A stretch of DNA of 64,000 nt from the NCBI GenBank assembly GCA_965203355.1, contig OZ241889.1:1056001-1120000 (forward strand), written 5' to 3'. The notes under the pieces are model-generated. The model saw nothing but the letters and a program-made list of their open reading frames with translations. It ran no database searches and had not been told where the DNA came from. The position numbers were made by a program, and so were the translations under genes. Positions 22,275 to 32,618 of this stretch are shown here, one piece after another. Origin of the DNA: Candidatus Latescibacterota bacterium (GTDB lineage: Bacteria > Latescibacterota > UBA2968 > UBA8231). Numbering within the stretch: the stretch's first letter is position 1; each line of letters starts with the position of its first letter.

Positions 22275-22958
22275 ATGCGCACCATTTTCGTCGGCGATGT
22301 CCACGGCTGCGCCGCTGAGTTTGCCGCCTTCTTGGCAAAGATACGTTACGACCGATCTCAAGATCGCCTGTTGCTGACCGGCGATGCCTTTGCTCGCGGC
22401 CCGGACCCGCTGGCCGTGTGGCAGTTGATCCAAGATACCCACGCCGAAATGGTTTTGGGCAACCACGACGCGCGCCTCTTGAAGCAACTAAATGCCTTAG
22501 GGAAGGGCCGCCAGCCCAAAGTGAAGTTCCCCGACCAGCGCTATACCCTCGCCCAGCTTCAGCCGGCCCACGAAGAAATCCTCGCTTGGCTTCGGCTGTG
22601 TCCGCTCTACATGGCCGAAGACGCTTTCTTGCTGGTCCACGCCGGTGTCCACCCGAAAAAGGGCTTACAAGGCACCCGCCGCAAAGAATTCCTCAAGATC
22701 CGCACTTGGCCGCCCTCGGACGATCTCGCCAGCCCGCGCTGGCACGATTTCTACGAGCCGGAGTACCCCCTGATCGTCTTTGGCCACGACGCGCCCGGCG
22801 GCTTGGTGGTCAAAAAGCGCGCGGGCCGTCCCTACCTTATCGGCCTTGACTCGGGCTGCATTTACGGCGGCCAGCTCAGTGGTTATGTGCTTGAAGAAGC
22901 GCGGCTCGTGCAGGTGGAGAGCCAGCAAGCGGCGCAGGTGTGGAAGCGGCTTGCTTAG
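22275..22958 (+). CDS. Metallophosphoesterase (ApaH/PrpE-like)
   Basis: GDVHGC, GD..ARGPD, GNHD, VHAG, FGH, GLDSGCIYGG. Confidence 0.85.
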   Translation: MRTIFVGDVHGCAAEFAAFLAKIRYDRSQDRLLLTGDAFARGPDPLAVWQLIQDTHAEMVLGNHDARLLKQLNALGKGRQPKVKFPDQRYTLAQLQPAHEEILAWLRLCPLYMAEDAFLLVHAGVHPKKGLQGTRRKEFLKIRTWPPSDDLASPRWHDFYEPEYPLIVFGHDAPGGLVVKKRAGRPYLIGLDSGCIYGGQLSGYVLEEARLVQVESQQAAQVWKRLA

Positions 22959-24109
22959 GCGAGGTCGCCGTTCCAGAGCATTTGGACGAAGGTGGCTGCG
23001 GGCAGGATGTCGATGCCGTCGTCCGTGCGGTGCGCCCGGGGTTCGAGGCACGCGACCACTCGTCGGCTGACGCTCGGATGATCTGCTACTAGGCTGCGCA
23101 GCCCTTTCAAGTGGTTGCCAACGATGTGATTGCTCGCCTTGGCCTCGACCGCTATCCGCATGTCGCCCAAGATAAAATCGACCTCGGTGCCGCCGGCTAG
23201 ACGCCAATAAGTCAGTTCGCCGTCGAACGCTTGATAGTCGGCAAACGCGGTCAATTCGTGGAACACCCAGTTTTCAAATGCCTTGCCGTATAGCTCCGAT
23301 CCCGGTAGCAGTTGGCCCCGGTGGGCGAGTCGGTTGGCTACGCCAACATCCGCAAAATAGAACTTCGGCGCGGCAACCACTCTGCGCTTGGGACGCCGGC
23401 GGAAGGCGGGCAACCAGCGCCCGAGCAGCGCGTCTTCGAGAATCTCGTAGTAGCTCCGCGCCGTGTGACTGGTGACGCCGCACGCCGGGGCGATATTAGA
23501 GAAGTTGACCATTTCGGTATCGCCTAGCGCGGCGGCGGCTAAAAATCCAGCAAACGCCGGCAAACTGCGGACCAGCCCTTCGGCCGCGACTTCCTCCTTG
23601 AGATAGTCGGCGACATAAGCGTCGAGCAACCGCGCCGGCCGGGTGTTGGCGTAGATTCGGGGCAGGTAGCCGTGGTTGAGGAGGCGGGTGAGATCAAAGT
23701 CGGCGCCGAGTTCCCGCGCGGTCAGCCCGTGTAGTTGGTGTCGCACGGCCCGTCCGCCGAGCAGGTTGGCACCTCCGCGCCGCACCTTGCGGGCACTGGA
23801 ACCGCACAGAGCGAAACACAACCCTCGGTTTTCGATCAGCCAATGCACCTCGTCGAGCAGCGCAGGTACCTTCTGAATCTCATCAATGACGATCTGGCGC
23901 TTGGGATCGAATCCTGTGGCCTCGATTTCATGACGCAAAAACTCTGGATTGGCGACGTACCGCCTGAACTCGTCTGCCTTTAGGAGGTCGAGCCACAGGC
24001 CGTCGGCGTACTGGTGTTTTAGCAGGGTGCTTTTGCCCGCCTGTCGCGGCCCCCAAAGGAAAAACGTCTCGGTGCCGGACGCGGGTAGGTTCAGAGCTCG
24101 CTCGTACAT
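22955..24109 (-). CDS. AAA_14 ATPase with DUF4143 (PD-(D/E)XK-like) C-terminus
   Basis: GPRQAGKST, IDEIQK, GSSARK, PKFYFADVG, GKAFEN, EVDF..VEAK. Confidence 0.88.
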   Translation of the reverse strand: MYERALNLPASGTETFFLWGPRQAGKSTLLKHQYADGLWLDLLKADEFRRYVANPEFLRHEIEATGFDPKRQIVIDEIQKVPALLDEVHWLIENRGLCFALCGSSARKVRRGGANLLGGRAVRHQLHGLTARELGADFDLTRLLNHGYLPRIYANTRPARLLDAYVADYLKEEVAAEGLVRSLPAFAGFLAAAALGDTEMVNFSNIAPACGVTSHTARSYYEILEDALLGRWLPAFRRRPKRRVVAAPKFYFADVGVANRLAHRGQLLPGSELYGKAFENWVFHELTAFADYQAFDGELTYWRLAGGTEVDFILGDMRIAVEAKASNHIVGNHLKGLRSLVADHPSVSRRVVACLEPRAHRTDDGIDILPAATFVQMLWNGDLA

Positions 24110-24436: not shown

Positions 24437-24531
24437 TGGTTATCAATAGAGTGGAGTAAAACACTATGGGGCGATCTAGACATTGCCCTTGACTTTTTTT
24501 GGTCTATATTTGGTCCGAAAAGGAGGTGCCT

Positions 24532-24807
24532 ATGAAACTGTCCAGCCAGATTAAGCCGATCAGCTATCTCAAGGCCCACGCCGCTGAGATCGTGCGCACA
24601 CTTGGAGATCAACCAGAACCCTTGATTATCACTCAAAATGGCGAAGCCAAAGCGGTCATGCAGGATATAGACAGCTACGAGCAGATGCAGGAAACAGTTG
24701 CATTGCTCAAGATTCTCGCGCTGGGTAGCCGGCAGATCGAAGCAGGTCAGGTGCAGCCCGCCGCCGATGTCGTCGCCCGGCTCCGGGAGCGGCCACGGGA
24801 TCGCTGA
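24532..24807 (+). CDS. Phd/YefM family antitoxin
   Basis: IKPISYLKAHAAEIV, PLIITQNGEAKAV; RBS AAGGAGG. Confidence 0.88.
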   Translation: MKLSSQIKPISYLKAHAAEIVRTLGDQPEPLIITQNGEAKAVMQDIDSYEQMQETVALLKILALGSRQIEAGQVQPAADVVARLRERPRDR

Positions 24808-25133
24808 TGGCTTGCTTGGTTCAGTTGACTGCTGACGCAACGCGCGATTTGGAGGAAATATGCGATTCCATCGATCGGCATGATGTGCCGGGTCGGGCGG
24901 CTTATGTGCTGGAGCAGATTGAGCAGGCTTTCGGCCGCCTTTCTGAATATCCCGAGCGGGGAAACTACCTGATGGAACTGCTGGACATTGGCATTCGGGA
25001 ATACCGCGAGATATTCTCCAAACCCTACCGCATCATCTATCGGATAATAAAAAATAACGTCTATGTGCTCTTGATCGCCGATGGACGACGCGACATGCAG
25101 ACGTTGCTACAGCGGCGCTTGCTGTGGGCGTAA
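24807..25133 (+). CDS. RelE/ParE family toxin
   Basis: DATRDLEEI, YPERG, YRIIYRI, VYVLLIADGRRDM; TGATG coupling to the antitoxin. Confidence 0.88.
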   Translation: MACLVQLTADATRDLEEICDSIDRHDVPGRAAYVLEQIEQAFGRLSEYPERGNYLMELLDIGIREYREIFSKPYRIIYRIIKNNVYVLLIADGRRDMQTLLQRRLLWA

Positions 25134-25344: not shown

Positions 25345-25392
25345 AACTTAGCCCACAGGTGCGACAGATCGCGTCGCAGGCGGAAAATTTTT
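25345..25392 (-). promoter_or_regulatory. Putative WYL-activated promoter, copy 2 (TGCGAC-N7-GTCGCA; TGTCGC-N10-TAAGTT)
   Basis: Palindrome at 25360-25378; -10-like TAAGTT at 25350-25345; 31/36 identical to 28952-28987. Confidence 0.7.
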
Positions 25393-26338
25393 ATGGCCGA
25401 ATCAAGTGCTCGACAAGTTCTAGTGCATCCACCGGCCAATAGCACGCTGGGCGAGGTTGATGGACATTGGGGTCTCCTTCCCTTGGTCGGCAGTTCAAGA
25501 GCCGGTCCACCCACCGCTCGGGGATGGCTTCTCGTCCATGCAGTGCGCCCAGCAGTGCGCCGCAGATGGCGGCGTTGGTGTCGGTGTCGCCGCCCCTGTG
25601 GACGGTATCTACGACAGCTTCCTCGAGATTCTCGGCGTGGAGCAGTTGCCATAGCGCGTTTTGGAACGCCGTCAGAACCAAGCCCTGTTCGTGCATATAA
25701 TCCGGCGGTGAAGTGATCGCGCTGTCGATGGCCGACATGAGCGTCGGTGCCGCTGGAATATCCGCGGCCCAGATCTTTATCTGTTTGTACAGCTCTTGGG
25801 GGCCGCATCCGGTGCGGACCGCGCAGGCAATGGCCGAAGCATAGAGCGAGTTGGCTTGCTGGCAGACCGGATGGGGATGCGTGAGTGCCGCGTCCTCGCA
25901 CGCCCATGATGCCACTTGCTCTAATTCGTAGTTAGCGCCGAAGATGCCCAGCGGGCTGATCCGCATCATGGCTCCGTTCGCTTGGCTACACTGATCGCGT
26001 TCACCTTGGAGGCCGCGGCGAATGGTGGTGCCGTAGTCGAACGGCTCAGAGTTGAACCAGCCGACATAAGCATCACGGGCAAGTGTTGGATCGTATCTGT
26101 TGTGTTGCGCCAGCACTCGGGCTAGGGCTAGCGCCATTTCGGAATCGTCCGTTGGTTGCCCGGCGATCGTGTTCCAAACCTCGCTGCCCTCGAGGTCGCG
26201 GACTCCGGCGGGGTGCTCGAACTGAATATCCTCGGGGCTTTGAAATTCCACTTGGCTGCCCAGCGCATCCCCGGCAAGTTGGCCCAGCAAGCAACCTTGA
26301 GCGCGCGCGAGGGTGTGGTCTCTTTCGCATATAGTCAT
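25391..26338 (-). CDS. ADP-ribosylglycohydrolase (DraG/ARH family)
   Basis: GCLLGQLAGDALG, PTDDSEMA, ANGAMMRISP, LTHPHP, GGDTDTNAAICGALLG. Confidence 0.92.
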   Translation of the reverse strand: MTICERDHTLARAQGCLLGQLAGDALGSQVEFQSPEDIQFEHPAGVRDLEGSEVWNTIAGQPTDDSEMALALARVLAQHNRYDPTLARDAYVGWFNSEPFDYGTTIRRGLQGERDQCSQANGAMMRISPLGIFGANYELEQVASWACEDAALTHPHPVCQQANSLYASAIACAVRTGCGPQELYKQIKIWAADIPAAPTLMSAIDSAITSPPDYMHEQGLVLTAFQNALWQLLHAENLEEAVVDTVHRGGDTDTNAAICGALLGALHGREAIPERWVDRLLNCRPREGDPNVHQPRPACYWPVDALELVEHLIRP

Positions 26339-26341
26339 TTA

Positions 26342-28411
26342 TCAAAAACCCATTTTGCGTGAATGATTCGGCTTAGCTTCGCACTCGGCGCACAGCAATT
26401 CTGCGAGCGCCTTGGCGTCTTGCAGGTGGCCGAGGATTTCGGCTTTGCGGCGGACTACGGCGAAATCACCTGGGGTCAGAGTGGAGAGGTCGCCGATTGC
26501 AGGCGGAGCTTCGAGCGCGAAATAGGTGTGGAACGCCGCTTGCGACTGGTCGGGGGTGAGATAGTCGAGCGCGATTTTGAAGGTGAAGCGGCGCAAGGTG
26601 GCCGGGTCGAGGTTTTCGCCGAAGTTGGTCGTACAGGCAAACGGCAGGGGGTGGCTCTCCATCCAAGTCAGCATTTCGTTGACTTGGCTGACTTCCCAGG
26701 AACGCACGGCACCGCGGCGGTCGGCGAGCAGGGAGTCGGCCTCGTCAAAGACGAGAATAGACTTTTCGGCACGTGCTTCGGCAAAGGCCGCGGCGATTCG
26801 CTGTTCGGTTTCGCCGACCCACTTGGACAAGAGGTCAGAAGCCCGCTTGTGGGTGACTTGGAGGCCGAGGCGTTCGGCTAGGTAGCGGACGAATGCGCTC
26901 TTGCCGGTGCCGGGCGGACCTTGCAGGCAAAGAGAGAAGTTCTGGCCGCTGGTTTTTGCGAGGCGATCCGCGAGTTGGACCGGGTCGGTATCGGCTTGGA
27001 CTAGGGCGAGGTCGAATCGCTCAGGAGGCCCCTGATTTGCGGGGGGCTTCTCGCCCACAATCACTTTGGCCAAACTGCGGACGCCGAGGCGCACTGCGGT
27101 GAGGTCGCCGCCGCAGAGGCCGGCCGCGGCGATGGCCCCAGACGCTACGCCAGGTGTCACATCGAATTCCTTGGCGAGGGCGTGCGTATCCGCGTCTGTC
27201 GCCTTGATGTTGCGGCGCGCCAACTCCCGTTTCCAGATACGCGCCCTAACTTGGGGCGGCGGCTTGCGCAACTCTAGGGCAAAGGTCATGCGGCGTAGGA
27301 GGGTGGCACAGGTTTGCCTAGCGGAGTTTGAGGTCCACAGCGTGGGCACGGGTGCGCGTTCTAGCACCCGGTTTAGGAATACCTTGGAACCGCCGGAGTG
27401 GAGCGTGGAGTAGCGGCTTGGGGCAAAGGGTATCCAGCCTGGATCTGAAAGTAAGTCCTCCATTTCGTCGAAGAGCAGGATTGACCCACGGCCCGACGCT
27501 AGCAAGCGCTGGGTGAGCCGAAGTTCTCGAAGACGCTCTTCCCGGTCGAGCTCGCGAATTCGCTCGTTCTCTTCGCCGACAGTATAGAGGTTCGCTTCGA
27601 GCCGGGCGGCCAGCGTCTTGCAAAACTCGGTCTTGCCGGTTCCCGGCGGGCCGTACACCAAGATATTTACGCCCGGTGTGCCTGCATCCAGTGCGCCTTT
27701 GAGCATTTTTTCGATATGATTGCGTTCCTCTGCTACGTGATCGAAATCCGCCCACGCTAGCTCGCCCGGGGCCGCCGTGTCGAGCAGTAGGCGACACACG
27801 TCGAGATCGCTATCGCCTGGGGCGGAGACCAGCCGTAGCAGTCGCTTGGCGAAGCCGATATCTCCGTCGTTATCGACTGACACAAGCCCGAATTCCACAA
27901 GCGGTGCATCAGCCGCGAAGCGGGCGCGGAATGCACTGCCCGATAGGCCGAGCAGGCAGGGTAGGACCGGCTCCATGACATTGAAGAGTCGATGTCTGCG
28001 TATAGCTCGCAAAGAATCGCCCAAATCCTCAAAGATCGGCTGGGTTTCGCAGCGAATCCACAGCTCTACGAGCGCGAGGTCGGTCGGCGCGAGGTCCATT
28101 TCCCGCTCAAGCCGCTGGATTTGTCGCGCTATGCGGTCTTTTCGCGTCTTTTTACGAGCCGCTACGCACTTTTTGTACTCTTTTTCGATAACCTCCCGCA
28201 GGACCTTCCAATCCCGGGCGGACAATCTCTTTTTGTCACGGCAGTGCTTCCATAGGTCGCTCAGCACCTCGTTCCCGTCACCGAGCGCGAGGATGTTTTG
28301 GTTCTGGGCGAGCCAACTAGCTAATGCCGTCTGTTCGGGGATGTGGTGGAAGCGCGAGACGGCGTTGGAAAGGTAAAAGAGAAGAAGCTGTCGTTCGTAG
28401 GCGTTGAGCAT
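26342..28411 (-). CDS. Tandem (double) AAA+ ATPase with helical/wHTH-like N-terminus
   Basis: Walker A GPPGTGKT with Walker B LLFDEMED; second GPPGTGKS with LVFDEADS; TTN, LDPATLRRF; terminal MGF. Confidence 0.9.
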   Translation of the reverse strand: MLNAYERQLLLFYLSNAVSRFHHIPEQTALASWLAQNQNILALGDGNEVLSDLWKHCRDKKRLSARDWKVLREVIEKEYKKCVAARKKTRKDRIARQIQRLEREMDLAPTDLALVELWIRCETQPIFEDLGDSLRAIRRHRLFNVMEPVLPCLLGLSGSAFRARFAADAPLVEFGLVSVDNDGDIGFAKRLLRLVSAPGDSDLDVCRLLLDTAAPGELAWADFDHVAEERNHIEKMLKGALDAGTPGVNILVYGPPGTGKTEFCKTLAARLEANLYTVGEENERIRELDREERLRELRLTQRLLASGRGSILLFDEMEDLLSDPGWIPFAPSRYSTLHSGGSKVFLNRVLERAPVPTLWTSNSARQTCATLLRRMTFALELRKPPPQVRARIWKRELARRNIKATDADTHALAKEFDVTPGVASGAIAAAGLCGGDLTAVRLGVRSLAKVIVGEKPPANQGPPERFDLALVQADTDPVQLADRLAKTSGQNFSLCLQGPPGTGKSAFVRYLAERLGLQVTHKRASDLLSKWVGETEQRIAAAFAEARAEKSILVFDEADSLLADRRGAVRSWEVSQVNEMLTWMESHPLPFACTTNFGENLDPATLRRFTFKIALDYLTPDQSQAAFHTYFALEAPPAIGDLSTLTPGDFAVVRRKAEILGHLQDAKALAELLCAECEAKPNHSRKMGF

Positions 28412-28438
28412 GGTTTCTCCCTCGAAATGACGCGGTGC

Positions 28439-28909
28439 TTACTGCGATACTAAAATCGCTAGATCGACATCTACTCCATCAAAAAGCGACTCTATCGCAA
28501 TACTTAAGAGAACCCTGTTAGAATCTACGATTAGGAGAGAGCCTTCGCCGACGACGAGGAACGGCGTCTCCAACTCGTCCTGTTCGGGTATGATCGATAC
28601 CGCAGATATTATGAGATAGTCTAGCGGCATGTATGCTACTGCGTCCGGTCCGAGGTGGGTGAGTGCTGTCTTGAGATAAAGGGCTTGGAAGGTTGTGGGC
28701 GTTATCCGTTCATCCTCAATGAAAATATCGCCGTCCTCGTCATAGAGGGAACGGGATAGTTGCCGCTCGATGATGATTCCTCCTCTGGGCGGCCCGGTTT
28801 CTCCCTGTGGCCCTTGCGGTCCGGCTGGTCCCATCGGTCCGGCGGGACCTTCGCAGGCGACAAGGCCGAAGGCCAACATAGCTGCTAAAAAAGAAAAGCG
28901 AGTAAGCAT
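28439..28909 (-). CDS. Collagen-like lipoprotein
   Basis: Lipobox LVAC (Cys19) followed by 7 Gly-X-Y triplets (GPAGPMGPAGPQGPQGETGPP); RBS AAGGAGG. Confidence 0.8.
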   Translation of the reverse strand: MLTRFSFLAAMLAFGLVACEGPAGPMGPAGPQGPQGETGPPRGGIIIERQLSRSLYDEDGDIFIEDERITPTTFQALYLKTALTHLGPDAVAYMPLDYLIISAVSIIPEQDELETPFLVVGEGSLLIVDSNRVLLSIAIESLFDGVDVDLAILVSQ

Positions 28910-28939
28910 TGCACACCTCCTTTTAGTTGTGGTAAAGGA

Positions 28940-28987
28940 AACTTATTTAGGAGGTGCGACAGATCACGTCGCAGACAGAAGTTTTTT
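28940..28987 (-). promoter_or_regulatory. Putative WYL-activated promoter, copy 1 (TGCGAC-N7-GTCGCA; TGTCGC-N10-TAAGTT)
   Basis: Palindrome at 28955-28973; TAAGTT at 28945-28940; about 30 nt upstream of the lipoprotein ATG. Confidence 0.72.
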
Positions 28988-29262
28988 TAGAAAAAGATCA
29001 ATTTTCGTCAAAATCGTCCGCCTGACTGCGCTTGCGGCACGGCAAGGGATTACCGGACGAATTTGCCGAGAGGAGGGGGCTTGGGGTGCGCTTTTGAGAA
29101 GCAGGTTGATAGGGCGGAATAAAGAAGAGCCGTACTCGTCGAGGCTACGGAGTTGGGGTTTTTGGGGCGGGCATGTTGTGCCACTGATACGTCTATATGC
29201 GATCGGTGGGGACTTCTTGGCTATGATGTATGCAAAGGATGAGTCATAGAGTCTCACCGCCA

Positions 29263-29448
29263 CTATTTGTCGAATGCCGTATCGAGCCCCTCGATTCCTG
29301 CGTGGATCAGCATGCGTACAAATTCTTGGCCATTAATCAAAGTGACGCCGTGTAAGTTGGCCTTCTTCTGGCAACACTCGGTAAAGTCTTTGCATGTCGA
29401 AACGACCCAAGAGACCTTGGAATATCCGTCGCTCTGTAATCCACTTAA
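29263..29448 (-). pseudogene. C-terminal remnant of an Mrr-like restriction endonuclease
   Basis: Startless frame ...SKVSWVVSTCKDFTECCQKKANLHGVTLINGQEFVRMLIHAGIEGLDTAFDK* resembles the end of Mrr_cat (hhhT..FT..A...A....hxLIdG.eh..ll). Confidence 0.45.
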
Positions 29449-29479
29449 TTAAACGCAATCCGTCATCCATCTGACAGGA

Positions 29480-30469
29480 TCACGTCGCTCCTTCATCCAA
29501 TCCCAGCACCGCTCGCATCTCCTCCCGCACCGCCTCCCGCAATTCCTCCGGCTCCAGTACCTCAGCCACCGCCCCAAAGCTCAACACCCAACTCTTGATT
29601 TCGTAGAACCCCCCGGCCCGCAGTCGCAGCACCACCCGCCCGTCGTCCAACTCTTCCAATTCTTGGCTCGGATGCCAAATCCGTTCCCGTATGTACGGTG
29701 CTTGCTGCTCGGTGAACCGAATTGCCACATCCATTGGCTCCTCAAGCGAGACGCCGAACGCATTGCTTACCTGCTCATCAACCGACAGGTGATCCTGCGG
29801 CTCAAACTTCTCCTCGGTCACTTCTACCGACTCAAAGCGATCCACCGCCTGCGTGATGAGCTGGTCGTAGTAAGGCACCCGTGAGATTGCGTATAGACCG
29901 CCTCGGTGAGGCATGAGGCGCAGTGGTTCTATATGGTACTGCCGGGCACTCTCGGCCCGTGGCGCGCGGTAGCTCACCCAACAAACGCGGCGTTCCAATA
30001 TGGCGTCGTGCAGGTTCTCGAGTATCTCGCATACATCTTCATAAGGCTTGTACCCGCGGGTGAGTGGCACATACGCCTCTGCCGCACGCTCTAGGAATCG
30101 CCGCATTTCCGAGGGCATGGCCTGAGTCAGCCTGCGAATCGCCGACCGCAGGTGCGCGCCAAATGGGGTGCCTACCAACCCCATGCCCGCCTGCTCGGCG
30201 AAGATCATCGCCGTGATTTCCATGATCGGAAAGTTTAGTGGCAGCTCGGGGTCTTTCAGCAGTTGGTAATAGATGCGCCGATCGACTGGCAACTTTTTCA
30301 TCAGAAACCCTATCGCGCGCAGGTCTTCCAAATCGCGTTGTATGGTGCGTCTATTTACTTTGTACTCGTCCGCCAGCTCGGGAACGCTTATTCCGTAATG
30401 ACGCGCTTGCATCGTCCGCAGGATGTCCAGTTGTCGCACAATCTGCTTCATCGAATCAGCCTTTATCAT
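29480..30469 (-). CDS. HTH-WYL-WCX transcriptional regulator (PafB/C, DriD, BrxR/CapW-like)
   Basis: wHTH ELADEYKVNRRTIQRDLEDL, WYL-like IEPLRL...GGLYAI, WCX ERIWHPSQ...SWVLSFG..AEVLEP.ELR. Confidence 0.92.
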   Translation of the reverse strand: MIKADSMKQIVRQLDILRTMQARHYGISVPELADEYKVNRRTIQRDLEDLRAIGFLMKKLPVDRRIYYQLLKDPELPLNFPIMEITAMIFAEQAGMGLVGTPFGAHLRSAIRRLTQAMPSEMRRFLERAAEAYVPLTRGYKPYEDVCEILENLHDAILERRVCWVSYRAPRAESARQYHIEPLRLMPHRGGLYAISRVPYYDQLITQAVDRFESVEVTEEKFEPQDHLSVDEQVSNAFGVSLEEPMDVAIRFTEQQAPYIRERIWHPSQELEELDDGRVVLRLRAGGFYEIKSWVLSFGAVAEVLEPEELREAVREEMRAVLGLDEGAT

Positions 30470-30552: not shown

Positions 30553-31245
30553 CTATCCCGCCGCCCGCGTCACCAAGTGCTCAAAGAGCTTCGACCAAAT
30601 CGTCCGCGGCATCCGCTCCGGGTGAAACTGCACGCCGATTAAGCGACCATCCGCGCTCTCAACCGCCTCCACGACGCCATCGCCGCTGCGCCCGCTGATG
30701 TCCAAGCCCGCGCCGGGCTGATCAATGGCTTGCAAGTGATACGAGTTGACCCGCGAAAGCCCGGCCTGGCCCAGCGCGGCCAGTATCGTGCCCGGCTCTA
30801 CTTGGAGATCGTGTTCGATGCGCTCGGCCTTGGCTCGTTGCGGCGAATGCGGCTCAACCCCGAGTTGGGCTTCCACGTCGGCCCAAATCGTACCGCCCAA
30901 CTCGGCGCTGATAAACTGCATTCCGTAGCAGATGCCCAAAACCGGCAACTGACGCTCTTGCGCGGCCGCAAAGCTCCAGCGGTCGGCTTGGGCGCGCTGG
31001 GCTGCCACGGGCGGTAGATCGCCGGGCAGGGTGCCGATCAGGCCGCGCTCAATGCCCGGGCCGCCGGTGATCAATAGACCGTCGATGCGCTCGAGGACCG
31101 CCTGTAGTGCCGTGCGCTCTGTCGTCATCGGCAGCACGAGCGGCGCACCGCCGGCCTGTGCAACCGCTTCTACGTAGTGATGATCGAGGGTTTGCTGGCC
31201 GTTGGCGTTTAGGCTGCTGGTGATGCCGATGAGCGGGCGGGGCAT
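30553..31245 (-). CDS. Gamma-glutamyl-gamma-aminobutyrate hydrolase family (peptidase C26)
   Basis: RPLIGIT, GLLITGG, PVLGICYGMQ, VNSYHLQA, GVQFHPE. Confidence 0.88.
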   Translation of the reverse strand: MPRPLIGITSSLNANGQQTLDHHYVEAVAQAGGAPLVLPMTTERTALQAVLERIDGLLITGGPGIERGLIGTLPGDLPPVAAQRAQADRWSFAAAQERQLPVLGICYGMQFISAELGGTIWADVEAQLGVEPHSPQRAKAERIEHDLQVEPGTILAALGQAGLSRVNSYHLQAIDQPGAGLDISGRSGDGVVEAVESADGRLIGVQFHPERMPRTIWSKLFEHLVTRAAG

Positions 31246-32618
31246 CAGACGCCGGCCTTGAGCCTGGCGAAGGAGACTGTGTCGTCGAGCAGGGTCAAGG
31301 CCGCAAAGCTCTCGATGTCGGTGCGCGAGGCGTCGAGCCGGGCGATGGCCTTGAGCAAGAAGTTCTGCTGCCGATCGTTGCGCGGACTGGCGGTCAGGAG
31401 CCGTTGGTTAAATTCGGCCTGGTCTTCCACGCTCTTGTTGGCTAGCCGCTCGCCTAGCCATGCCACCATCGCTTCGTCGGTCCCGTTGGCCGCGATCGCT
31501 GCGGCAAAGGCGGCTTGGTCGAGGCCGAGAAAATCCAGCACGGCGCGGTCAAAACCCGAATCCTCGCCGCACCAGTACTCGCCTAGGCAATGGCAGTGCG
31601 CGGCGCGGAATTTGTCGATCATCCGCGCTAGGCAGGCCAAGCCGCCGACGCTCAGATCAAACGGGCTACGCGGCGGGTGTCGGCGCAAGTCCGTCAGCCC
31701 AAAGCTCAATTCGTCGTCGAGGTCTTGCAGGTCGAAAAAGCTCTGGATATCGGTACGCTCGGGCGCGATTTCGGCGCGGCGGGCGGCGAGCCGTTCGCGC
31801 ATCGGGTCGTAGTCGCCGGTGCTGGCATGAGCGGCGTCGAATAGGTCCGGGTGATATGAGTGATGGAGCGGGTGGGCCGGGTGGCGACCGACGTTAGCGC
31901 GGCAGGCGCTGAAGACGCTTTTTTCCGCGGCCGATTTCTGGCAGCGTTGGGCGATCCACTCGCTCAGCTCGTCGTCGTTGGGGTTTTCATAGGCCGCTTG
32001 GCGAAAGGCGTCCTCGGCAATGCCCAAGAATTCCAAAATGGCCGCGTCTTGGCTGGAATCGGCTCCAAAGCGGTACTCGCCTAACTTGCCGCAGGTAGCG
32101 GCCCGCGCCTTGTCGGCCATGCGTGCGGCACCCGCCACGCCGAAGACGCGGCGGAGGTAGGGGCTGCGCGGCGGTTGAGCGGTCAGATCCAAATCCCGAA
32201 AGGCGCCCCAGTCGTCCAATTCGATGGAGGCGAAGACCGTTTTGATGTCCGTGCGACCTGGGGCGTACTGGGCGATCCGCTCGGCCAGCAGCCGCTCGTG
32301 TAACTCGTCCTGCGGCTCGCGGGTGAGGTGTTCCTCGTTGAAGTCGTCGATCTCGGCTGGGCTTTTCTGCGCTCTTTCGAGGGCCAATTCGCCCAAGGCT
32401 TCGTCGTCTAGCTCGGCGACGGCCGCGGCGAACTCGGCGGCGTTCATGTTGATGAATTCGAGCACTTCGACATCGAGGCCGGAGGGGTCTCCATATTTGA
32501 ACGCGCCGATGGTTTCGGCCTTGTGGCCGCGCGCCTTGTCGATCATCCGCGCCAGCCCGGTGATGCCGGCGACGCCAGCGTTGGAGGGGCGGCGGGGTGG
32601 TTGTCTGGTCAGGTCCAT
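31245..32618 (-). CDS. Protein with three tandem DUF5069-like domains
   Basis: Three copies of DL...PPR.P.....G...LARM.DK.RA....LGEY..G..S..D...LEFL. Confidence 0.8.
   Translation of the reverse strand: MDLTRQPPRRPSNAGVAGITGLARMIDKARGHKAETIGAFKYGDPSGLDVEVLEFINMNAAEFAAAVAELDDEALGELALERAQKSPAEIDDFNEEHLTREPQDELHERLLAERIAQYAPGRTDIKTVFASIELDDWGAFRDLDLTAQPPRSPYLRRVFGVAGAARMADKARAATCGKLGEYRFGADSSQDAAILEFLGIAEDAFRQAAYENPNDDELSEWIAQRCQKSAAEKSVFSACRANVGRHPAHPLHHSYHPDLFDAAHASTGDYDPMRERLAARRAEIAPERTDIQSFFDLQDLDDELSFGLTDLRRHPPRSPFDLSVGGLACLARMIDKFRAAHCHCLGEYWCGEDSGFDRAVLDFLGLDQAAFAAAIAANGTDEAMVAWLGERLANKSVEDQAEFNQRLLTASPRNDRQQNFLLKAIARLDASRTDIESFAALTLLDDTVSFARLKAGV

Follow-up and report, generated by a model that had tools for sequence, protein, structure and literature searches.

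We describe a locus on the minus strand of a Candidatus Latescibacterota contig (OZ241889.1, assembly GCA_965203355.1), at positions 25,345 to 30,469 of a stretch of 64,000 nucleotides (nt) that is called the window here, and we propose that it is the local regulon of a DriD-family transcription activator, which would drive an operon whose conserved core is a Cdc48-like tandem AAA ATPase. We assign this reading, which rests on sequence comparison and structure modelling, a probability of roughly 0.6. The conserved core of the related loci, which come from at least seven phyla, consists of an operator and the ATPase gene, usually with the regulator gene directly downstream. The other two genes of the operon, which encode a collagen-like lipoprotein and an ADP-ribosylglycohydrolase (ARH), are add-ons found in few lineages, and the trio of lipoprotein, ATPase and ARH is not the conserved unit. 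The features of the locus are as follows.

29480 to 30469, minus strand: winged helix-turn-helix (wHTH)-WYL-WCX transcription regulator, DriD-like, 329 amino acids (aa); Pfam HTH_11, WYL and WCX.
29266 to 29448, minus strand: remnant of the C-terminus of an Mrr-type restriction endonuclease, 61 codons, outside the module; weak match to Pfam Mrr_cat.
28955 to 28973, minus strand: box 1, predicted DriD-type operator TGCGAC-N7-GTCGCA; its core matches the published DriD core CGAC-N7-GTCG.
28940 to 28945, minus strand: predicted -10 hexamer TAAGTT, 9 nt past box 1, with no -35 element.
28439 to 28909, minus strand: collagen-like lipoprotein, 156 aa, clade-specific cassette; lipobox LVAC and GXY triplets.
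26342 to 28411, minus strand: tandem classic-AAA ATPase, 689 aa, with an N-domain (helical bundle and winged-helix-like unit) and the modules D1 and D2; two Pfam AAA matches.
25391 to 26338, minus strand: ARH, 315 aa, accessory cassette; PF03747.
25345 to 25378, minus strand: second DriD-type box, TGCGAC-GCGATCT-GTCGCA, with a TAAGTT -10 element; orphan, with no open reading frame (ORF) behind it.

The coordinates bear out the arrangement from which an earlier, sequence-only reading of this DNA had started, namely a co-oriented and tightly spaced trio that follows a palindromic promoter element about 0.5 kb past an HTH-WYL-WCX gene: the regulator, lipoprotein, ATPase and ARH genes share one orientation, and the gaps between them, in that order, are 570, 27 and 3 nt. 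The regulator matches HTH_11 (E 1e-9), WYL (6e-12) and WCX (1.6e-22) in Pfam, and its best solved relatives are chains of Caulobacter DriD (9pfq and 8tp8, E 2e-12, residues 9-320). This kinship is distant, at 50 bits compared with 205 bits for the ATPase-linked WYL protein of an alphaproteobacterial locus (L022), which matches DriD 8tp8 at E 1e-59; here and below, L numbers denote loci and G numbers the genomes of relatives, L001 belonging to G001 and L084 to G003. Orthologues of the window regulator with 76-83% identity occupy the corresponding chromosomal site in L001, L002 and L054. We consider the protein to be a probable wHTH-WYL-WCX activator of the DriD family, its activating role being a prediction from this kinship and from the promoter.

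Box 1 (TGCGACGTGATCTGTCGCA, 28973-28955, TGCGAC-GTGATCT-GTCGCA) lies 46 nt upstream of the lipoprotein ATG and is followed by 9 nt, the hexamer TAAGTT, a strong Shine-Dalgarno sequence and the start codon. According to the portions of the DriD literature that were available, the published operator core is CGAC-N7-GTCG (PMC13010146), the DriD site at Caulobacter didA is ATACGTCCGTTTCTGGCGCA (PMC9186387), and DriD sites overlap the -35 element at a fixed distance from the -10 element, where DriD recruits RNA polymerase (PMC13004042). No sigma-70 -35/-10 pair was found at the box 1 promoter, and scans of the region for sigma-70 promoters and terminators gave nothing above shuffled sequences. Because the operator sits before the lipoprotein gene, the lipoprotein, ATPase and ARH genes read as one operon that would be activated by the WYL protein.

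The same signal recurs upstream of the ATPase in other genomes. In 13 loci the core CGAC-N7-GTCG lies no more than 400 nt ahead of the ATPase, for the most part between -63 and -69, and most upstream regions have a 21-bp palindrome at about -65, such as ATACGTCCGAATCTGACGTAT, whose first 15 bases match the Caulobacter didA site. Of the 65 usable loci, 40 have a degenerate core box in the 200 nt that precede the ATPase, and 36 of these also have TAnnnY at a distance of 8-10 nt. Taken by itself, the loose core is often found by chance (245 observed vs 107 in reversed sequences), and the strict composite of box, 9 nt and TAnnnY gave 54 matches vs 4 in reversed controls (82 loci, 967 kb, both strands). 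Of these 54 sites, 39 precede the ATPase, two precede the lipoprotein-ATPase pair and 13 precede other genes of the same loci. Genome-wide, the exact box is confined to these loci in G001-G004 and has one additional copy elsewhere in G005, with a count of zero in the reversed-pattern control. The earlier proposal of a palindromic promoter element under WYL control has thus gained support, in that a DriD-type operator and a -10 element stand before the operon and are conserved in relatives and across phyla. On a single alphaproteobacterial contig, three separate copies of the ATPase and WYL genes (L017, L027 and L030) have near-identical boxes.

The relatives of the ATPase were taken from a scan of genome contigs, which gave 452, and the best 80 were retained for the locus counts. 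The family is large (2014 matches at E <=0.001 among 8000 scored candidates, the best 120 at 57-78% identity), and the 80 loci come from Latescibacterota, Gemmatimonadaceae, Acidobacteriota, Nitrospirales, Binatia, Thermodesulfobacteriota/Desulfuromonas, and Alpha-, Beta- and Gammaproteobacteria. According to a profile of the WYL protein, 52 loci have an HTH-WYL-WCX gene no further than 1.5 kb from the ATPase, and 58 have one anywhere within the fetched flanks; 45 of the 52 genes are directly downstream on the same strand, six are divergent and upstream, and one is upstream on the same strand. No third partner is conserved: all-against-all clustering of the neighbours gave no further cluster in more than four of the 80 loci, and of the 127 Pfam families matched by the 124 closest flanking ORFs, none is found in more than three of these ORFs. 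The sequence-only reading had suggested a search of the neighbourhoods of homologues of the 689-aa ATPase for the ARH, WYL and lipoprotein genes; across the 80 loci the WYL gene does recur, but the other two are rare.

The ATPase itself contains two PF00004 AAA modules according to Pfam. The best Foldseek matches of its AlphaFold model, which was built on a 73-sequence alignment and has a predicted local distance difference test score (pLDDT) of 87.2, are Rix7, AFG2, p97, Cdc48 and NVL (E 2e-16, probability 1.00, 15-20% identity), and a profile search of PDB sequences agrees with these matches. The Walker A, Walker B, sensor-1 and arginine residues are invariant in the 73 sequences (K260, D315/E316, N362 and R374; K504, D556/E557, N596 and R607/R608). 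The motifs YTVGE in D1 and SKWVGE in D2, as read from the sequence, are of the type that forms pore loop 1 in substrate-threading AAA proteins, and Y276...G279 of D1 and W531-V532-G533 of D2 are invariant or nearly so. On the strength of the model, we regard the protein as a probable Cdc48/p97-like tandem AAA unfoldase, with a predicted unfolding activity and a presumed substrate. The model of the N-domain (pLDDT 91.4) consists of a helical bundle (1-90) and a winged-helix-like unit (91-212). Foldseek gave no match to this domain at E <=0.001, and a wide VIA-align search reached Z values of at most 5.1, for MarR-type winged helices over 91-212 and helical bundles over 1-90; the Protein Atlas returned solely unnamed or collagen-like clusters for the N-domain and the lipoprotein. 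Past the Phd/ParE cassette, L002 (12299-12431), L054 (8815-8950) and L007 (11251-11359) carry stray copies of the final ~130 nt of the ATPase gene, which suggests cassette insertion or recombination at the 3' end of the ATPase gene.

Judged by its boxes, the regulon is local and built of cassettes, with a predicted operator before each. L002 has four boxes and L001 two, and every one of them heads a cassette. Box 1 and its promoter recur directly before the ATPase gene in L001 and L003; in L002 and L054 they recur ahead of the lipoprotein-ATPase pair. Because of the former arrangement, we regard the lipoprotein gene as an insertion between promoter and ATPase in part of the clade. Boxes also precede a small ORF with a PDDEXK_4 gene (L001), a DUF1643 gene with a PDDEXK_4 gene (L037) and a Fic gene (L010). 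Nuclease and helicase genes recur in 18 of the 80 loci (PDDEXK_4, PDDEXK_1, RNase-H-like with superfamily 1 (SF1) helicase, DUF2779, beta-CASP and DnaB-like). In the window, the orphan box (25378-25345) lies directly past the ARH stop codon, and the homologous box of L002 (10258) heads genes for an outer-membrane protein (OMP) beta-barrel and a DnaB-like helicase; because no ORF follows the box in the window, the window seems to have lost this cassette. L006 and L023 keep the box with no WYL gene in their flanks, as is expected of a regulon member.

In the lipoprotein, the sequence shows a signal peptide with the lipobox L-V-A-C at its end and, after it, seven G-X-Y triplets; the protein matches no Pfam, NCBIfam or PADLOC family. 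It has 107 homologues, 17 of which contain PF01391, and among the ATPase loci it is restricted to the Latescibacterota-like clade. It is present in L002 and L054 and absent from L001 and L003, and L004 has a partial match behind a box of its own. Thirteen pairs of lipoprotein and ATPase homologues lie on contigs of equal size, four of them shorter than 9 kb, which is an indirect sign of linkage within the clade.

The ARH matches PF03747 over its full length (E 1.4e-63, profile positions 1-287 of 287) and DraG (3g9d) at E 1.2e-26, and it contains the TDD and GGDTDT motifs, which are metal ligands in the ARH family. Its scores are below the NCBIfam equivalog cut-offs for DraG (139.7 vs 337) and Tri1 (93 vs 490). 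The family is very large, with 4058 matches at E <=1e-30 among 8000 scored. In 80 metagenome loci of this wider family (L085-L164, 63-68% identity, 674 kb), neither the ATPase nor the WYL or lipoprotein gene was found, and upstream of the ARH there was no convincing DriD box in 74 usable loci. A neighbour of the defence-island type (BrxL, DUF1156, GmrSD, DUF932, a SACS-domain protein or a 1289-aa SF1 helicase) is present in 33 of the 80. A paper on BREX diversity does not mention ADP-ribosyl enzymes in the portion that was available.

These neighbours bear on the best surviving alternative, which we nevertheless consider unlikely, that the locus belongs to an inducible island directed against phages or mobile elements. 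The WYL protein would then sense phage nucleic acid, the ATPase, nucleases and ARH would be effectors, and the ARH would undo phage ADP-ribosylation. The Phd/ParE pair and the Mrr remnant in the island of the window fit such a role, as do the recurrent nuclease and helicase genes, flanking ORFs that in some cases match AbiEi, McrBC, Mokosh or AriA models, the BrxL, DUF1156, GmrSD, DUF932 and large helicase genes beside the wider ARH family, and the resemblance of the D2 module to IetA (91.6 bits). However, no PADLOC system fits the locus, IetA/IteA reaches a score of 94.7 where 510 is required, neither the lipoprotein nor the ARH matches a PADLOC model, and the flanking genes are mostly ordinary. 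The ATPase was found in 22 of 72,556 plasmid records and, among phages, in one distant record. Moreover, the promoter layout is of the DriD-activator type, whereas the defence-linked WYL regulators described in the available text of PMC10693628 are repressors.

A second alternative, which was the central claim of the sequence-only reading, is an obligate three-part system in which lipoprotein, ATPase and ARH together reverse hostile ADP-ribosylation. The tight spacing within one operon and the apparent co-regulation of ARH with the ATPase in Leisingera favour it, and the whole trio is found again in L002 and probably also on an 8,915-nt metagenome contig (matched by size). The trio did not hold up as a conserved system, however: ARH-like ORFs occur in three of the 80 ATPase loci (L002, L026 and L071, by iterated search), and the lipoprotein occurs in two, with one partial match. 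G001 (L001) and G005 have no ARH at E 1e-10. At the syntenic site of G003 (L084, 8900-10550), an intact ARH gene (81% identity) lies by short remnants of the ATPase (residues 621-689), the lipoprotein, the promoter and the WYL gene, and a second copy in that genome, 3.4 Mb away, has the full WYL-lipoprotein-ATPase set without ARH. The absence of all three partners from the wider ARH loci points the same way, and we consider an obligate trio very improbable.

Co-regulation of ARH with the module nevertheless appears to be real in places. On plasmid pBMJM1_5 of Leisingera thetidis (L166), the annotated order is hypothetical protein, AAA ATPase, WYL protein, ARH and PD-(D/E)XK nuclease, and a box with a -10 element lies 64 nt before the ARH gene. 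The ARH of this plasmid and that of Gemmobacter (L071) are fused to a DSP-type phosphatase domain and lie near a PDDEXK_1 nuclease gene. The ATPase of the plasmid (4902-6905) is annotated as two genes, a 210-aa "hypothetical" protein with a weak WHD match and a 452-aa AAA ATPase, with IS66 and IS3 elements just upstream.

Least probable of all is that the ATPase is a feedback partner whose N-domain would bind the WYL protein, so that the regulator is reset or remodelled, since, although the two genes share an operon in 45 of the 80 loci and the N-domain belongs to no known family, regulators commonly adjoin their targets, L006 and L023 keep the box and ATPase with no WYL gene nearby, and the regulator is a separate transcription unit in the clade of the window.

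We favour the local DriD-type regulon, which may work as follows. The regulator gene would be transcribed on its own, and its product would sense a ligand that, by analogy, may be single-stranded DNA (ssDNA) from DNA damage or invading DNA. An operator 9 nt before a -10 element, with no -35 element, characterises the promoters at which Caulobacter DriD covers the -35 position, recruits RNA polymerase and so activates transcription, and the box 1 promoter would in this manner drive the lipoprotein, ATPase and ARH genes as a single operon. The double-ring ATPase has an aromatic pore loop in each ring and, once the regulator has sensed its ligand, most likely acts on a protein substrate by threading and unfolding it or by extracting it. 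The lipoprotein and ARH genes would be cassettes recruited into the regulon in the Latescibacterota lineage, and other lineages would have recruited PD-(D/E)XK nucleases, DnaB-like helicases, Fic proteins and phosphatase-ARH fusions, often behind a box of their own.

Several observations weigh against this proposal or against parts of it. A WYL gene is missing from the fetched flanks of 22 of the 80 loci, six of which have less than 350 nt of downstream flank, and 25 of the 65 usable loci have no core box before the ATPase. Among the residues that contact ssDNA, the tyrosine of the WYL motif (DriD Y192) is retained, but K202, R204 and W206 of DriD are replaced by Q, I and Q in the window regulator and its close relatives; the DriD segment KPRSWR aligns to QLITQA, in an alignment of this loop that is uncertain at 20% identity. 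The WYL partners in proteobacteria retain PRLWRL. Because the three residues have no equivalents, the ligand of the window regulator may differ from ssDNA. Of the ssDNA-triggered WYL control in the sequence-only reading, the WYL control stands on a DriD-type operator and promoter conserved across phyla, and the ssDNA trigger is doubtful. The substrate of the ATPase is a guess, because no convincing relative was found for the fold of its N-domain (Z at most 5.1). Furthermore, the ARH recurs in three distant lineages, with its own box in Leisingera, and it may be more than a passenger.

The surroundings of the locus are syntenic in the Latescibacterota relatives, with a C26 peptidase gene and a DUF5069 gene on one side and Phd/ParE and DUF4143 genes on the other. 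In the window, these are a gene for a 457-aa protein (31245-32618, minus strand) that matches DUF5069 in four stretches and adjoins a C26 gamma-glutamyl peptidase-like gene, a Phd/ParE toxin-antitoxin pair (24499-25133, plus strand) and a gene for a DUF4143/AAA_14 ATPase (22955-24109, minus strand). The Mrr-like remnant (29266-29448) lies between the WYL gene and box 1, a position at which L001 and L002 carry an additional box instead; its Mrr_cat match covers profile positions 79-115 of 115 (E 5.9e-4, 20.4 bits vs a cut-off of 21). The GC content falls to 0.53-0.56 between 28 and 30 kb and to 0.54 between 24 and 25 kb, in surroundings of 0.60-0.65. The low-GC islet with a toxin-antitoxin pair that had been described earlier is therefore present, but the Mrr match in it is weak and the ATPase gene, at 0.60-0.62, is without the dip of the neighbouring stretches.

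WYL/DriD circuits are a recently recognised, SOS-independent means of sensing damaged or foreign DNA, with targets known in few species. If the regulon reading is correct, the pathway would have a widespread effector in the most conserved neighbour and target of DriD-like regulators, a Cdc48-like unfoldase, which would also be a bacterial counterpart to the role of eukaryotic p97 at damaged chromatin. A tentative extension, which we do not expect to hold in full, is that the ATPase is the core effector of DriD-type nucleic-acid-sensing circuits across phyla, acting as a Cdc48-like segregase to strip proteins off damaged or foreign DNA and joined by box-driven cassettes (nucleases, DnaB-like helicases, Fic proteins and envelope proteins), with the ARH as a damage-reversal enzyme that removes ADP-ribose from DNA or DNA-bound proteins. 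Given one operator per cassette, sequence by itself suffices for a simple reading of local WYL regulons, and the cultured carriers include Gemmobacter, Roseovarius, Leisingera and Azospirillum.

Among known systems, the DriD regulon of Caulobacter crescentus (PMC9186387 and PMC13004042, both in part) is the closest in its control: it shares a homodimer-type wHTH-WYL-WCX regulator, the operator core CGAC-N7-GTCG and an operator that overlaps the -35 element at a fixed distance from the -10 element (PMC13004042), and its targets include nucleases and replication genes, as the cassettes described here do. It differs in that its targets (didA, recA, recJ, bapE, dnaG, CCNA_02375 and CCNA_03891/01149) are not described as AAA ATPases, the terms "AAA" and "ATPase" having no occurrence in the available text of the two papers, and in that the regulon here is local and the window regulator is without the ssDNA-contact residues. 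SiwR-dinS of Mycobacterium smegmatis and DdaA of Acinetobacter are likewise palindrome-binding WYL activators with adjacent or DNA-damage targets, but these targets are DinB-superfamily genes or aciT, recA and similar genes, and an ATPase is not mentioned in the available portions of PMC10693628 and PMC13010146. BrxR and CapW likewise combine an HTH-WYL-WCX protein with a palindromic operator and with a target operon beside it; they are described as repressors (PMC10693628, in part), whereas the regulator here has DriD as its best solved match and a promoter of the DriD-activator layout.

The proteins of the operon have their own relatives. Cdc48/p97/VAT, Rix7/NVL and AFG2 have two stacked classic AAA modules, aromatic pore loops and the same fold (E 2e-16), but at 15-20% identity, and the ATPase here is bacterial, under predicted WYL control, and has an N-domain of a helical bundle and a winged-helix-like unit. 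In IetAS, the classic AAA module of IetA resembles D2 at the PADLOC score given above, but a single module is matched, the NCBIfam score is far below its cut-off, and no IetS-type protease was found in the window or in the census of 124 flanking ORFs. The DraG/ARH hydrolases and Tri1 share the full-length PF03747 domain and both motifs, but the window ARH scores under both equivalog cut-offs and has no DraT, nitrogenase or Tre1 context. In PADLOC 2.0.0, the WYL protein matched generic Cas-associated WYL models, the ATPase gave weak IetA/TRIP13 matches and the lipoprotein and ARH gave none; no system fits, which agrees with the earlier statement that the gene combination is not a named system. 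Literature searches and the available main texts of the DriD, DdaA and SiwR papers gave no description of a DriD/WYL-tandem AAA ATPase pair. The regulator type and the promoter layout are already known from DriD, and what appears to be new is the pairing of a DriD-type regulator and operator with a tandem AAA ATPase.

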